A stretch of 64,000 bases of DNA from Candidatus Saccharimonadota bacterium (GTDB taxonomy: Bacteria > Patescibacteriota > Saccharimonadia > Saccharimonadales > JACDBH01): positions 66,145 to 130,144 of the forward strand of contig JACDBH010000001.1 in assembly GCA_013694995.1 (NCBI GenBank). Direction: 5' to 3'. Positions 32,959 to 63,525 of the stretch are shown here, in pieces. How positions within the stretch are numbered: the first letter of the stretch is position 1; the number at the start of each line of letters is the position of its first letter. The translations under genes and the position numbers were made by a program. Below the pieces are notes generated by a model. That model ran no database searches and had not been told where the DNA came from. It was given only the letters and a program-made list of their open reading frames with translations.

Positions 32959-33288
32959 CTATTTTTGTCTAATTATTTCCAGCAAGCCACGAGCTGCTTC
33001 TAATGCATTAGGCTGAACGTCGGGACTTTGCTCAAGCAATTCAAGACTCATAACTATGTCTGCCTTGCTACGTTCTATTTCGCCGCCCTTTAGATATATA
33101 ACCAGGTCTTTTTGATCTTCACCCGTTGAGAGTTGACTGTGCACATCAAGAAAAGTAGTTAATTGGCTTTCAGCTTTAGTATTTATTCCAGTCGAAGATA
33201 GAGCATCGCGAGCCGTAGCTATTTGTAGCCTACCTTGAAGAAACAACTCATCTGGACCAAGTTCTCGCATAATAAAAACACTATACAA
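32959..33288 (-). CDS. hypothetical protein
   Basis: 109-aa ORF (alternative start 33270, MRELGPDE). No motif recognised. Confidence 0.45.
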   Translation of the reverse strand: MYSVFIMRELGPDELFLQGRLQIATARDALSSTGINTKAESQLTTFLDVHSQLSTGEDQKDLVIYLKGGEIERSKADIVMSLELLEQSPDVQPNALEAARGLLEIIRQK

Positions 33289-33312
33289 TTATATCTGTAT
33301 AGTGTAAATATC

Positions 33313-33389
33313 TGGCGGGGCCGACCGGATTCGAACCGGCGATCTCCTCCGTGACAGGGAGGCATGTTAGGCCTCTACACCACGGCCCC
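33313..33389 (-). tRNA. tRNA-Asp (anticodon GTC), CCA encoded
   Basis: The minus strand reads GGGGCCGTGGTGTAGAGGCCTAACATGCCTCCCTGTCACGGAGGAGATCGCCGGTTCGAATCCGGTCGGCCCCGCCA, a clean cloverleaf. Confidence 0.92.
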
Positions 33390-33452
33390 TCGTCGGATGT
33401 TGCGCCATTACCTCGTTTTGCCCTAAAGTGCAAAAGCTTCGGCTTATGGCTT

Positions 33453-33620
33453 GCATCCTCCTCTCGAATTTGCTATTCCTCTAGCAAATTCGGAAAGACA
33501 TCTAAACATGGAACTTGGTCGGTTCCTCCTCTCGGTTTCAAGAATCCTCTCTTGAAACCGGAAAGACCAACAGACCAAGCCGTCTCCTCTCAGTTGCCCG
33601 AACGGCCGGCAAGTGGTCTG
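33453..33620 (-). repeat. array of conserved-architecture hairpin units upstream of tRNA-Asp (candidate ncRNA or processed leader)
   Basis: Minus-strand units: TGTCTTTC-CGAATTTGCTA-GAGGAA-TAGCAAATTCG-AGAGGAGGATGC (33500-33453) and TGGTCTTTC-CGGTTTCAAGA-GAGGAT-TCTTGAAACCG-AGAGGAGGAACC (33569-33521). A degenerate third unit sits at 33620-33580. Confidence 0.6.
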
Positions 33621-33867
33621 GTTCGATCAACTGGGTTAGCTTCAAAGAACAAAAAAGCTTGGAACGCTATGTCCAAGCAAATACGCCTGTCACTACGTTT
33701 CAAATAATTCTATCAGAACAGGGGTAATAACGCAAATACCCGTAATACCTAATTGCAAAACCAGCGTTTAGCACAGAAAATATTGCTTAATCAATTTATT
33801 GCAAAGAGTACAAACCGCTAAAATCTGAAGGACTCTGGTATAATTGCCCCTGTTCATTACGTGATAC

Positions 33868-33943
33868 GCCGGAGTAACTCAGTTGGTAGAGTAGCTGTTT
33901 CGTAAATAGCAAGTCGTGGGTTCGAGTCCCATCTCCGGCTCCA
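33868..33943 (+). tRNA. tRNA-Thr (anticodon CGT), CCA encoded
   Basis: GCCGGAG...CTCCGGC-T-CCA acceptor, D-arm CTCAGTTGGTAGAG, anticodon loop TTCGTAA, T-arm GTGGGTTCGAGTCCCAT. An extended -10 (TGGTATAAT) lies at ~33838. Confidence 0.92.
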
Positions 33944-33947
33944 GGTT

Positions 33948-33998
33948 TGTCTTTGCCGGCTTTGCGAGAGGATTCGCAAAAGCCGAATAGCGAAGAGA
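33948..33998 (+). repeat. fourth hairpin unit of the same family, plus orientation, just after tRNA-Thr
   Basis: TGTCTTTGC-CGGCTTTGCGA-GAGGAT-TCGCAAAAGCCG-AATAGCGAAGAGACC. It has the same flank, stem length and loop as the minus-strand units, with an unrelated stem sequence. Confidence 0.6.
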
Positions 33999-34032
33999 CC
34001 TTAGCTCAGTAACCTAACCATTACGCCTCGAC

Positions 34033-34085
34033 GCGGGTATCGTATAACGGCTATTATCATCCTTCCAGAAGGATAAAACGAGGGT
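34033..34085 (+). pseudogene. partial tRNA-Gly copy (positions ~1-53 only)
   Basis: GCGGGTATCGTATAACGGCTATTAT is identical to the first 25 nt of the intact tRNA-Gly. The anticodon region is altered (ttccagaa, 8-nt loop). Similarity stops inside the T-arm (..ACGAGGGT|gagaag). Confidence 0.7.
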
Positions 34086-34227
34086 GAGAAGTGCCAGCGG
34101 CACTTCGCAAGGCCGGAAGCCCTGCGTGGCTTGGCAGCCACCAGAGCTGAGGCGGGGTCGCAAAATTTTTCTGATAGAAAAATATCTGTGACCGACTCGG
34201 AGTCGAACCAGGTATAAACTTTAACGC

Positions 34228-34302
34228 GCGGGTATCGTATAACGGCTATTATGTATCCTTCCCAAGGATAAAACGAGGGTTCGACTCCCTCTACCCGCAC
34301 CA
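34228..34302 (+). tRNA. tRNA-Gly (anticodon CCC), CCA encoded
   Basis: GCGGGTA...TACCCGC-A-CCA acceptor, anticodon arm TATCC-TTCCCAA-GGATA, T-arm GAGGG-TTCGACT-CCCTC. The D-stem is weak (G-T, T-A, A-T, T-T). Confidence 0.8.
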
Positions 34303-34465
34303 TATAATACTATCCAGCTTGTTTGGGTAGTATTATATGTCTGAGTTAGAGAAAGCCAACTGCTTGGCTTTCGTAGGGAGTCGAACAGCCGGAGCCATGT
34401 CTGAGTTTGCTCCTTAAAGGAGCAAGGCGAAGACGGCGAGGCGGGCCAGCAAGCATTTTTCGTCA

Positions 34466-34508
34466 GATAAAATGACTTGTGGGTCGAACTCTCCCTCTAC
34501 CCGCACCA
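34466..34508 (+). pseudogene. degenerate 3' partial tRNA-Gly copy
   Basis: GATAAAATGACTTGTGGGTCGAACTCTCCCTCTACCCGCACCA versus GATAAAACGAGGGTTCGACTCCCTCTACCCGCACCA in the intact gene. The T-arm no longer pairs. Confidence 0.65.
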
Positions 34509-34592
34509 GTAGAGAGCAAAAATGGGTCGCTTGTGGTTAATAATATTGTTCGCTTCAACACCCAGGGTCAGCTATAATGAGAACTAATTCTT

Positions 34593-34949
34593 ATGACAAT
34601 TCCAAGCAGATATTTTCATAACCGTTCGGTGTTGTTGCTGCTCATTATTAACAGCATCCTGCTGGTGATAGGCGTGCTACTGATACTCTTTAGGTTGGAT
34701 TCCGATACAACCACAAGTTATATCCTAGAATACCGAGCGAATCTGGTTATAGGAGACTACAAAATAGGCTCGAGCCTGGATATGGCCGGCTTTATATTTT
34801 TCATGTTAATTAACTTCTTTTTATCAATAATCTTAAGCCTTAGGACATTCGGGTTGCGTAAACATGTGGCAGTCATGATTTTAGGGATCTCCAGTCTTAT
34901 CACGCTATTAACTATAATTGTTAGCAATGCTTTGATGGCTCTGAGATGA
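34593..34949 (+). CDS. hypothetical multi-pass membrane protein
   Basis: 118 aa with three or four hydrophobic helices. 4-nt overlap with the downstream GT2 gene. Confidence 0.55.
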   Translation: MTIPSRYFHNRSVLLLLIINSILLVIGVLLILFRLDSDTTTSYILEYRANLVIGDYKIGSSLDMAGFIFFMLINFFLSIILSLRTFGLRKHVAVMILGISSLITLLTIIVSNALMALR

Positions 34950-39214: not shown

Positions 39215-39925
39215 AAAAGACATCTAAATTGCCAGGTGTCTTTTTCTATATGACAGTTAAATGCGTACCGATTTAGAAATACGAACAAACTGTCGCAATT
39301 ATAATTTTTGCGACGACTGTACGTATATGAATATTCATATCATGGAATGAATAGAGAGAGTATAAGTAGATATACACACTATCCACAGGGCAGAAGCCAA
39401 AAATAGCTAAAAACCTGAAATAAGTACTAGCACTATGATGCTAGTACGTGTATAGTAGCTGTTAGGTGAAGTTTTGCGATGTGTTTGTGATACAATACAT
39501 CACGAGCCATGACGTGGAATTCACCAGCCACCGAGCTCCGTCGGCCAACAGAACGTACGTTAACGTGAGGTCAACAAGTCTCTAGAGTATAGAGAGAAGT
39601 CCGGTGGAACCGTCCTGAACCTTTAATCATCTACACATATCTGCACCCCTGGTGCCGTACCTTATCAACAGATGATTAAATGGCTTTCAGGTCCCGAGAC
39701 GCGCTACAAATAGATTTGAGTGTATTTGCGAGAGCATTCAAAACCTATTGTTATGGCGCGTCTTTTAATTTGTCGGACTTTTTGCTCGGCACATTTTGGC
39801 TATGCAACTTCGTGCCGCTGTCACCGTACACTAAAGTACGGCTCGGTTACGGTACTCGTTACAGCACTCAAACTGCACTCGAGCAAAACGCCCGCCTAGT
39901 TTATTAATATTAAGGAGAATGATTT

Positions 39926-45387: not shown

Positions 45388-45948
45388 CCGGCAAGTCCTT
45401 GGGTATGAGACAATACCAGTAGGCTGGGAATAGCCAACTATATGATAATCTGAATACTTATCATATGGGAGCTCAAGATTTTTGCAGGCCGTGGCCGGCA
45501 AGTGCGAGCACCCACCTAGAGCTAAACACTCCAGGTTGTCAGTGTTGGCCCCAGCCCTATGCATCACGCTAGCATCGTTTCGAGCAAAGCTCGAAGCCGA
45601 GCTAGCGTTTTTGGTGTTATGCGGCTGTTAAAGCCTGCGCTACTCCCTCACCGTATTTAAATATGGCTCGGTCCGTTGCTCATTTTAAAACCACTTAACA
45701 CCAAATGCATAGGGCTGGACGTCCGTGGTGTTTATAAGAGGTAGATACGGTATAATTGCATTTAGTTAATATTTTGACAGGATGTAGTTGAGGCTTATTG
45801 GGAAGAGCAGCCCGAGGTCTGTGGCTTTAACAATCAGCCAAACCAGACAGTTAGTTTGCCGTTTGGAGGATTGAGAAGAGGAACAGACCAAAAAGTAAAG
45901 CTTTGAAACTTTTGTTTCAAAACAAGCTAAAAGGTCGAGTTCCTACGA

Positions 45949-46024
45949 CAGGGTATAGCTTAGTTGGTAAAGCGCCGGGCTGGGGGTCCGGAGACCGGAG
46001 GTTCAAGTCCTCTTACCCTGACCA
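45949..46024 (+). tRNA. tRNA-Pro (anticodon GGG), CCA encoded
   Basis: CAGGGTA...TACCCTG-A-CCA, D-arm AGCTTAGTTGGTAAAGC, anticodon arm CCGGG-CTGGGGG-TCCGG, T-arm CGGAGGTTCAAGTCCTCT. A long hairpin (46026-46098) follows. Confidence 0.9.
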
Positions 46025-46870: not shown

Positions 46871-47077
46871 CAAAATGACCGCCTATTTCAGGCGGCCATT
46901 ATGATGTAGGCCAGATGATCTATAAGCCGGGTTCTGTTTAGAACTAGCCCAGGCCTGCACATTTAGCAAATAGCAGGTCCAAGCTTCATGCTGTACCTAT
47001 CGTGCGTCAACATATCTTTAGATATGCCTCTTTACGATAAGTTCAACCTAAAACTCGTCAGCAACTATTTTGCTTTT

Positions 47078-47514
47078 TAATGTTCAGACCAGGGCCAGCT
47101 CCTGCTAATCATCTATCTAGGCTTAGGATTGCTCCTAAGCTCAAGCGGTTTTTGTTGACGAGCCCCGGCGGGAAACCTTGATGGGACTTATCTCCTTGCA
47201 GCGGACAGGGTTTACCTCTTCTACACGTCACCGTGCAGAACTGTGGGCTCTTACCCCACTCGTTTCATCCTTACCGTCAGCGCTCCGCCCTGACAAGTCG
47301 AAAGTTTGCAAAGTATAAAGTTTGAAAGTCATATGAATTTCAAACTTTAGGAACTTTTAACTTTTTAACTTGCCGGTGCGAAGCACGGCGGCGGTATCGT
47401 TTCTGTGGCACTTTCCCTGAGGTTACCCTCGGTTGCCGTTAACAACTGTCTTTCCCTACGCTGCCCGGACTTTCCTCTCGCGTATAAACGCGGGCGATTA
47501 GCCGAACATCTGAC
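47078..47514 (-). ncRNA. rnpB: RNase P RNA (bacterial type), approximate ends
   Basis: The minus strand contains GAGAGGAAAGTCCGGGC (plus-strand coordinates 47463-47479). P2 pairing is GCTAATC/GATTAGC. P1 pairing is ATGTTC/GAACAT (47504-47509 with 47080-47085). The 3' CCTAGATAGATGATTAGC...GGCCCTGGTCTGAAC resembles the P4 3' strand. A TATAAT box lies just upstream (plus 47521-47526). No ORF anywhere in this region. Confidence 0.8.
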
Positions 47515-63336: not shown

Positions 63337-63525
63337 TGGATGAGCACTTTTAGAGGTTTCTGTTATGTTGTCTCTAAAAAAGCTCCTTAAAAACTAGGAT
63401 AGTGCAAATCAACGTCAGTTTTTTTGAATTGTTTTTAATAGAGACGTTTAGGGTTTACCCTGGACAGTCTCAAGTCAGTTTCGACTGATGCTAATGACAA
63501 ATTCTTTTTCTAGAGCAATCTAGAT

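Follow-up and report, generated by a model that had tools for sequence, protein, structure and literature searches.

Bacterial tRNA 5' leaders are usually short and are treated as throw-away sequence; what, then, is a leader of 130-310 nt that carries a covarying two-hairpin module doing in front of tRNA genes? The question is raised by a 64,000-nt stretch of DNA, here called the window, from the metagenome-assembled genome of a Candidatus Saccharimonadota bacterium (GenBank assembly GCA_013694995.1, contig JACDBH010000001.1, positions 66,145 to 130,144), in which a 478-bp gap separates the divergent genes for tRNA-Asp (33313-33389, minus strand) and tRNA-Thr (33868-33943, plus strand). In this gap, and again just 3' of tRNA-Thr, an earlier note on the sequence had described hairpins with 11-bp stems and GAGGAW loops and had offered three functions for them: protein sponges of the Csr/Rsm type, decoys for the 3' tail of 16S rRNA, or signals for tRNA-precursor processing. 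Here, we report that the GAGGAW hairpins (termed H1) are part of a previously undescribed folded RNA module that lies between promoter and tRNA in several tRNA genes of a group of Saccharibacteria. H1 is best read as the first, 5' hairpin of an RNA element that is modular, folds by itself and occurs in the tRNA-precursor 5' leaders of a sub-group of Candidatus Saccharibacteria.

GAGGAW hairpins in tRNA 5' leaders

Two of the copies in the window, A (33450-33503) and B (33514-33580), lie on the minus strand upstream of tRNA-Asp, and the third, C (33943-34002), lies on the plus strand. Read along the minus strand, A consists of tGTCTTTC, the arms CGAATTTGCTA and TAGCAAATTCG on either side of the loop GAGGAA, and AGAGGAGGA (core 33465-33492); as a hairpin, TGTCTTTC leads into an 11-bp stem of 33482-33492 with 33465-33475, the loop occupies 33476-33481, and AGAGGAGGA follows. 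B has gGTCTTTC, the arms CGGTTTCAAGA and TCTTGAAACCG around GAGGAT, and the same AGAGGAGGA (core 33533-33560); its 11-bp stem (33550-33560 with 33533-33543, loop 33544-33549) crowns an extended hairpin formed by CTTGGTCTGTTGGTCTTTC and AGAGGAGGAACCGACCAAG, with 30-nt arms and a folding energy of -36.2 kcal/mol (z -5.2). In C, read along the plus strand, GTCTTTGC is followed by CGGCTTTGCGA, GAGGAT, TCGCAAAAGCCG and AATAGCGAAGAGAC (33949-33999), and a lower stem GTCTTTGC:GCGAAGAGAC carries an upper stem of 33957-33967 with 33974-33985 around the loop at 33968-33973. The scores of A, B and C against a covariance model of the family (R1) were 62.2, 89.5 and 58.1 bits. A perfect 11-bp stem closing a 6-nt loop occurred three times in the window versus 0.02 times expected, and A and B were two of those three.

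The described hairpin units are thus real, and their stems are indeed perfect in A and B but not in C, which has the same design with one extra, bulged A in the 3' arm. The stems are not unrelated in sequence, as had been claimed: they have 5-8 of 11 positions in common (consensus CGRNTTYRMKA), and at the 6 of 11 positions where A and B differ, all six differences are compensated. A supposed degenerate unit at 33571-33620 (minus strand) proved to be a distinct hairpin containing GAGAGGAGA and not a member of the family; only CTGAGAGGAGAC is common to the two (79% over 19 nt), the fold is different, and R1 did not pick it up at E<=10. There was no further copy in the window beyond A, B and C, and these three were also the only copies in ~84 kb of the window genome, all of them in tRNA leaders, with R1 finding none elsewhere there. 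Copy C does lie just after tRNA-Thr but is better described as a leader element than as a tRNA-Thr trailer, being 47 nt upstream of a 53-nt 5' fragment of tRNA-Gly(UCC) (34033-34085, plus strand; read from the sequence), which has almost the same sequence as the 5' part of tRNA-Gly(CCC) at 34228-34302.

Copies in other organisms were sought with a strict pattern in which flanks, CG base, closing pair and loop were fixed and 8 positions per arm were free; the tRNA was not part of the pattern. Among 185,579 species-representative genomes there were 6 matches, all with non-complementary stems, and among metagenome contigs there were 23, of which 20 had 2-6 of 8 positions complementary; because their stems are non-complementary, these 26 are regarded as chance matches. 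The other three metagenome matches (7-8 of 8 positions complementary) were structured copies from related Saccharibacteria, found before tRNA-Asp in contig L025, tRNA-Ser(GCU) in L029 and tRNA-Arg(UCG) in L039, in each case 73-89 nt upstream of the tRNA gene and on its strand. Given that these three precede tRNAs and that C lies 47 nt before tRNA-Gly(UCC), all six H1 copies are tRNA 5'-leader elements, 47-143 nt upstream of a tRNA and on its strand; the link to tRNA precursors that had been proposed from the window held in 6 of 6 copies. A search of ~230 kb of Saccharibacteria DNA with R1 yielded no copies beyond the six from which the model was built. The family is real and, as far as the strict pattern could show, narrowly distributed.

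That the motif had not been described before was upheld: Rfam 15 gave no match to it at gathering scores over the whole window, nor at E<=10 over 33250-34650, where only tRNAs and noise-level microRNA-like hairpins appeared. A full-text literature search found no paper on tRNA-leader hairpins in Saccharibacteria. When 33300-34320 was compared by blastn with a phage collection, tRNA matches alone were returned, and three scans of viral contigs gave either nothing or coding matches of the EEEPTK type. Two coding explanations were considered and set aside: a 118-amino-acid open reading frame (ORF) at 33351-33707 (plus strand) matches no Pfam family and was not called as a gene, and leader peptides found no start codon at a usable distance after the tracts resembling a Shine-Dalgarno (SD) sequence.

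In predicted folds H1 is an irregular hairpin of 18-26 pairs, in which the flank UCUUU(C) is base-paired to (A)GAGGA (the partner of UCUUU being GGAGA, AAGGA or AAGAG, with two U.G pairs included). What had been taken for a single-stranded GGAGG tail is accordingly a purine tract mostly paired with the UCUUU flank in the lower stem. In the six-copy alignment, 84% of cells were paired and 14 of 26 pairs had changed on both sides; none of 500 shuffles reached the observed covariation, and sliding the register collapsed the signal. Coming from six related sequences, this covariation provides strong support, short of proof, for the suggestion that selection has acted on a nucleic-acid structure. 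Among the six there was no variation in the GAGGAW loop, the A-U pair that closes it, the basal CG of the stem or the UCUUU flank. In each of the six copies the sense (tRNA) strand gave the more stable fold, by 1.1-8.6 kcal/mol over the antisense strand, and the folds contained 14 G.U pairs on the sense strand versus 2 on the antisense strand. Both the stability and the G.U bias indicate that, of the RNA or extruded DNA structure originally envisaged, it is RNA on the tRNA strand that was selected. H1 is not a terminator, as AGAGGAGGA or AAUAGCG follows it instead of a U run, and a terminator scan did not call it.

The two-hairpin module and its transcription unit

H1 makes up only the 5' half of a larger leader module with two hairpins. 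Alignment of the leaders revealed a composite hairpin (D2), comprising three short helices around a hairpin H2, that follows H1 and ends 5 nt (GACGA) before the mature tRNA; the full module thus reads UGKUCUUU-C, 11-bp stem, GAGGAW, complementary stem and A-GAGGA..., then D2, GACGA and tRNA. In the tRNA-Asp leader, D2 occupies 33395-33456 (minus strand) and in minimum-free-energy folds has the helices GGAUG:CAUCC, GCCAU:AUGGC and GCC:GGU, followed by H2 (UUUUGC..GCAAAA). The linker GACGA (33390-33394, minus strand) separates it from the 5' end of mature tRNA-Asp(GUC) (called with ARAGORN and the Rfam tRNA model), the presumed RNase P site. Unit A together with D2 makes a complete module, 71% identical to that of L025 over 111 nt.

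D2 was found in five places and is the best conserved part of the module: after unit A in the tRNA-Asp leader, in the tRNA-Pro leader of the window, in L025, in L029 and, within the window genome's 16S-23S spacer, ahead of tRNA-Ala. Its helices remain paired despite changed sequence (GGAAC:GUUCC, GGAUG:CAUCC and AACC:GGUU in one; CGACC:GGUCG and GCCAU:AUGGC in another; AAC:GUU, GCC:GGU, AUC:GAU and AGU:GCU in a third), and the sense strand folds better in 4 of 5 copies. The linker is the same or near-identical in L025 and L029, in L039 (GACGU), and before tRNA-Ala (GACGU) and tRNA-Pro (UACGA). A K-turn in the D2 internal loop was considered and rejected on inspection, as the 2b.2n position does not fit.

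The looser echo that had been noted before tRNA-Pro is a true homologue: 45873-45948 matched the L025 and L029 leaders at 74-76% identity over 76 nt (E ~1e-12), with 90% identity to both over the last 31 nt. This leader holds an H1-like long irregular hairpin (45816-45889, plus strand), with the same base as H1 (GGUCUGU..CUUU opposite AGAG..GAACAGACC) and a different apical part that lacks the GAGGAW loop, followed by D2 and linker (45878-45948, plus strand) and the tRNA-Pro gene (45949-46024).

All copies of both hairpins (D2, 5 of 5; H1, 6 of 6) lie in a tRNA leader, on the tRNA strand, between the inferred promoter and position +1. The putative tRNA-Asp promoter (33707-33735, minus strand) consists of TTGCGT at 33730-33735, a 17-nt spacer with ACCCCTGTT, and TGaTAGAAT with the -10 element at 33707-33712, which would give a leader of ~310 nt. 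This combination of TTGC(G/T)T, 17-nt spacer with ACCCCTGTT and TAnnAT is kept in the window, L025, L056 and L058, taking the form TTGCTTttttacccctgttytgaTAnnAT before tRNA-Asp in the three other contigs. The distance from promoter to tRNA-Asp is ~20-45 nt in L056 and L058 versus 190-310 nt, module included, in the window and L025. Because relatives have the same promoter with the tRNA directly after it, the module is taken to fall within the transcription unit. In L029 a promoter of the extended -10 type and close to consensus (TTCACT-16-TGgTATAAT, 10 of 12 matches) lies ~13 nt before H1. On these grounds, the module is probably co-transcribed with the tRNA and removed by RNase P.

Early in the tRNA-Asp leader lies a terminator-like hairpin (33647-33678, minus strand; GCTTGGA..TCCAAGC with a T6 run), then a boxA-like TGTTCTTTGAAGC (~33638-33650); L025 retains the hairpin, with a different stem sequence, and the U run. 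Window and L025 agree exactly over the first 28 nt of the leader (GAAACGTAGTGACAGGCGTATTTGCTTG), and this start, together with the terminator-like hairpin and, in the window, TGTTCTTTGAAGC (a region at window 33630-33700 and L025 8283-8335, both minus strand), could form an attenuator or a short separate RNA. A motif TTRCCCCTGTT recurs beside tRNA promoters (window 33717-33727, minus strand, and 33844-33854, plus strand; L025 8343-8353; L029 159-169; L056; L058), where it falls within the promoter spacer for tRNA-Asp and tRNA-Ser(UGA) and, for tRNA-Thr, immediately 3' of the -10 element. In the window its copies form an inverted repeat (33716-33728 and 33843-33855) and may be a shared regulatory site.

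Role and origin of the module

As to function, we tentatively favor a role in cis, in the stability or processing of the tRNA precursor, while putting its probability at somewhat below even. The leader would be transcribed from the tRNA's own promoter and fold as two irregular, rod-like helices, each about two turns long, and the RNase P cut at the tRNA 5' end would then remove the module. Until that point the closed helices might keep a long purine-rich leader from disturbing how the tRNA folds, shield the 5' end from decay of the RNase J type and/or serve as an entry site for a double-strand-specific nuclease, with the invariant loop and UCUUU flank as a possible contact for some factor. Several observations are compatible with such a scheme: H1 (18-26 pairs) and D2 (18-23 pairs) reach in their predicted folds the duplex length of RNase III substrates (~20 bp or more, mostly continuous), the window genome encodes RNase J and PNPase, and the RNase P RNA gene is inside the window. 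The D2 copy of tRNA-Ala also argues for this role by sitting in an rRNA spacer, that is, in a processed polycistronic precursor. Of the three functions in the earlier note, a tRNA-precursor processing signal appears to be the viable one.

Several observations weigh against a role in cis. Generic protection or RNase III entry leaves the invariant GAGGAW loop and UCUUU flank unexplained, as is the terminator-like hairpin between promoter and module in the window and L025. Orthologous loci, reached via a neighboring 103-amino-acid protein and NrdR, revealed that the module is absent from the tRNA-Asp leaders of L004 and L012 (103-amino-acid protein 65-81% identical) and of the more distant L056, L058, L061 and L062; it is therefore not needed for tRNA maturation. 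The more distant relatives have the same tRNA-Asp promoter and short leaders, which marks the module as an inserted, dispensable and duplicating element. Copies before different tRNA genes can be nearly the same, the Asp module of L025 and the Ser module of L029 being 92.5% identical over 120 nt. The window tRNA-Asp leader has a B-type H1, 95% identical to the L025 hairpin and differing from it by one compensatory A-U to G-C change, stacked upstream of the full A-type module (71%), which we call the older one. The H1 cores of L025 and L039, from the same sample, are 94% identical, although the L039 Saccharibacterium and the lineage of the window organism show just 54% identity in FolC. Near-identity across tRNAs and across organisms so divergent in FolC looks more like recent spread than slow constraint. 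The module thus duplicates or moves between tRNA leaders, and its older copies (A, C and L039) keep the structure, loop and flank.

The same patchy distribution (present in the window, L025, L029 and L039 and absent from the six orthologous leaders), near-identity, stacking and FolC discrepancy are what would be expected of a selfish or semi-selfish palindromic mini-element, similar to repetitive extragenic palindromes (REP) or miniature inverted-repeat transposable elements (MITE) and spread by duplication, recombination or some kind of transposition, an explanation that is rather unlikely but the most serious of the alternatives. Such an element would survive only in tRNA leaders because RNase P discards their contents, and its hairpins would owe their perfection to template-switch "correction" of quasi-palindromes or to selection only against precursor misfolding; a family of ~125-nt inserts with duplicated tRNA ends, found at tRNA 3' ends in the same genomes (see below), lends it further support. 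What it does not account for is that the G.U pairs make the structure RNA-strand-specific, which DNA-level palindrome correction does not predict, and that in the older copies the loop, closing A-U pair and UCUUU flank are kept while the stems have diverged with compensation. All six copies are oriented alike relative to the tRNA, the module boundary falls exactly at tRNA position +1, neither inspection nor repeat search revealed terminal inverted repeats or target duplications at the module borders, and there is no transposase among the flanking ORFs. At the level of DNA, an operator or a cruciform might be suggested by the perfect 11-bp inverted repeats with 6-bp spacer, but stems that differ among copies exclude a common operator and the G.U asymmetry is strand-specific; chance, for its part, is at odds with the excess of such hairpins over expectation noted above and with independent copies in three other contigs. 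We consider both of these very improbable.

A role in trans, the sponge or decoy of the earlier note, is unlikely. The leader would be stable after RNase P cleavage, accumulate in proportion to tRNA transcription and titrate, through its GGA loop and GGAGGA tract, a reader of GGA or SD sequences, either a CsrA/RsmA-type protein or the 16S 3' tail. The loop GAGGAU/A agrees at 5 of 6 positions with ARGGAU, which we take to be the CsrA hexaloop consensus; another GGA follows 15-20 nt further 3', in a lower stem that two U.G pairs and one C.A mismatch make less stable; pairing is possible between GAGAGGAGG and the 16S tail CCUCCUUUC of the window genome; and the window has tandem copies. A functional RNA from a tRNA spacer has a precedent in 3'ETS-leuZ, an external transcribed spacer (ETS). 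A 5'ETS fragment is reported as another (PMC9514646), and csrA has been reported among the highly expressed genes of groundwater ultra-small prokaryotes (PMC9938205). The sponge claim nevertheless fits the module poorly, since the purine tails are mostly paired, GGA is missing from the tail of copy C and from D2, and the GAGGAW loop from the tRNA-Pro version. Each unit offers 1-3 GGA (one in the loop and 1-2 largely paired in the 3' flank) versus 7-22 in Csr/Rsm RNAs, and there is no independent small RNA (sRNA) gene, the element standing between tRNA promoter and tRNA with no terminator after it. Rfam gave no CsrB, CsrC, RsmX, RsmY or RsmZ match at gathering score or at E<=10. A search for csrA (tblastn with the Escherichia coli and Bacillus subtilis proteins) and for hfq found neither in ~530 kb, ~230 kb of it Saccharibacteria DNA and hence part of the genome only. 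More speculative still, and quite unlikely, is a leader released as a stable RNA one-for-one with the tRNA, whose GAGGAW loop and GGAGGA tract would capture such a reader (CsrA-type protein or 16S 3' tail) and so link global control of translation with tRNA transcription in a symbiont of minimal genome size, or, alternatively, a structure-defined mobile element that homes with precision to the tRNA 5' boundary.

We find it improbable that the module is a nut-like or rrn-like element, in which UGKUCUUU would be a boxA-like NusB/NusE site and the variable-stem hairpin a boxB-like site that modifies RNA polymerase on stable-RNA operons. It is promoter-proximal in the leader of an untranslated stable-RNA unit, UGGUCUUU agrees at 7 of 8 positions with UGCUCUUU, presumably the E. 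coli boxA consensus, and a variable stem with an invariant purine-rich loop recalls boxB. A better boxA-like UGUUCUUUGAAGC occurs in the window leader right after a hairpin, and a hairpin followed by AGCUCCUUAAAAAC is the arrangement of the genome's 16S leader. Yet every predicted fold pairs the flank UGKUCUUUC with GAGAGGA, the boxA that this genome has in rrn (GCUCCUUAAAAA) differs, the transcription units span only 0.2-0.4 kb, the only terminator-like site of the leader is upstream of H1 rather than downstream, and most tRNA genes, like the orthologous ones in relatives, are without the element.

What is at stake differs among these explanations. At least six tRNA species (Asp, Ser, Arg, Gly, Pro and Ala) share the module in Saccharibacteria, a group whose genomes are very small and leave little room for non-coding DNA. 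A cis-acting module would represent an unrecognized step in their handling of tRNA precursors, a released leader acting in trans would be a new tie between regulation and tRNA synthesis, and a selfish element would make tRNA leaders a safe harbor for structured inserts. On any of them the module is a candidate new RNA family, with H1 and D2 as two covariance-model seeds.

Other unusual features surround tRNA and rRNA genes here. At 34033-34509 (plus strand) the 53-nt 5' part of tRNA-Gly(UCC), ending in the T stem, is followed by a GC-rich structured insert of 142 nt, the complete tRNA-Gly(CCC) (34228-34302), an insert of 179 nt and a tRNA-Gly 3' fragment GGTCGAACTCTCCCTCTACCCGCACCA; both inserts contain the motif GAGGCGGG..GCAA..TTTTTC..AGA.AAAAT. 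The structured inserts of ~125 nt lie just downstream of tRNA genes and each end in a duplicated tRNA 3' end (L063 15604-15775, in the window genome ~1.9 kb past the right end of the window; L029 127-377, minus strand; L004 644-840). Those of tRNA-Ala and tRNA-Ser are 78% identical over 101 nt. The inserts look like miniature integrative elements or remnants of them; there is no sequence similarity between them and the leader module. Further tRNA fragments next to intact tRNAs, a tRNA-like 5' piece in the tRNA-Pro leader of L062 (835-910, minus strand) and a tRNA-Thr 3' half in L004 (239-306), suggest that tRNA loci are often rearranged in this group.

The RNase P RNA (class A; 46907-47513, minus strand) is 607 nt long versus 367 model positions, with insertions of ~100 nt (AU-rich) in P12 and ~160 nt near the 3' end, in which inspection for a partner of the H1 loop revealed no obvious UCCUC site. 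Between tRNA-Val and the threonyl-tRNA synthetase gene lie ~700 nt of hairpin-rich non-coding sequence (39215-39925, plus strand) that had no match in Rfam, T-box included. The 16S-23S spacer is very long (L063 14755-16273 and 19535-20017), with 574 nt before tRNA-Ile and 670 nt after tRNA-Ala, and a LAGLIDADG endonuclease ORF immediately beyond the 23S match suggests that the rRNA operon contains an intervening sequence. In the 16S leader (63351-63400, plus strand), downstream of a TTGACT-17-TAGTAT promoter, a hairpin of TTTTAGAG and CTCTAAAA is followed by AGCTCCTTAAAAAC, likely a boxB-boxA antitermination site.

Relation to known systems

The TIGR arrays of bacteria of the candidate phyla radiation (CPR) have stems with dual unpaired spacers, box C/D motifs and an adjacent Tas (Nop-domain) gene (PMC12045711). 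They resemble the leader module in having tandem hairpin units with short conserved motifs and variable parts, in CPR bacteria, but the variable part here is a continuous, perfect duplex and no Tas-type gene is nearby; with no Nop domain found by Pfam in the flanking ORFs, a TIGR stem array was rejected. REP sequences, bacterial interspersed mosaic elements and MITE are likewise short, multicopy palindromic units, patchy between strains, that form hairpins in transcripts. Unlike these, the module occurs only in tRNA leaders and is always co-oriented, its stems vary with compensation around a fixed loop and flank, and no RAYT, other transposase or inverted ends were seen next to it; dispersal over many intergenic regions, typical of REP and MITE, is not its pattern, as the scarcity of H1 in the window genome attests.

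With the Csr/Rsm sponges (CsrB, RsmY, RsmZ) H1 shares a GGA in the hairpin loop, further GGA nearby and likely high expression, whereas its long stems (at least 11 bp), its few and mostly paired GGA, its place within the leader of another gene and the lack of an Rfam match set it apart; no CsrA was detected in the ~530 kb searched. The lambda nut and rrn boxB-boxA sites are similar in placing a U-rich, CUCUUU-like tract beside a hairpin of variable stem and fixed purine loop in a promoter-proximal leader. They differ in that H1 is much longer than boxB and that a nut site has a single-stranded boxA matching that of rrn, while the boxA-like tract here is paired and unlike the AGCUCCUUAAAAAC of the genome's own rrn leader.

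RNase III hairpins such as phage T7 R1.1 and the rRNA spacer stems likewise lie in the spacers of stable-RNA precursors and are irregular, with internal loops and a length of about two helical turns. RNase III sites need no conserved loop, and the staggered double-strand cleavage of an RNase III substrate would be hypothetical for the module. The tRNA external transcribed spacers (3'ETS-leuZ of E. coli and 5'ETS fragments) are non-tRNA parts of a tRNA unit that are released by the enzymes of tRNA maturation and produced in parallel with the tRNA, as the module would be. Those spacers act by pairing with sRNAs and are single loci that form no structured family, whereas a covarying two-hairpin module here precedes tRNAs for Asp, Ser, Arg, Gly, Pro and Ala. 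The family itself is unmatched in Rfam, and the module is a structured spacer of a stable-RNA precursor, which is a known category.

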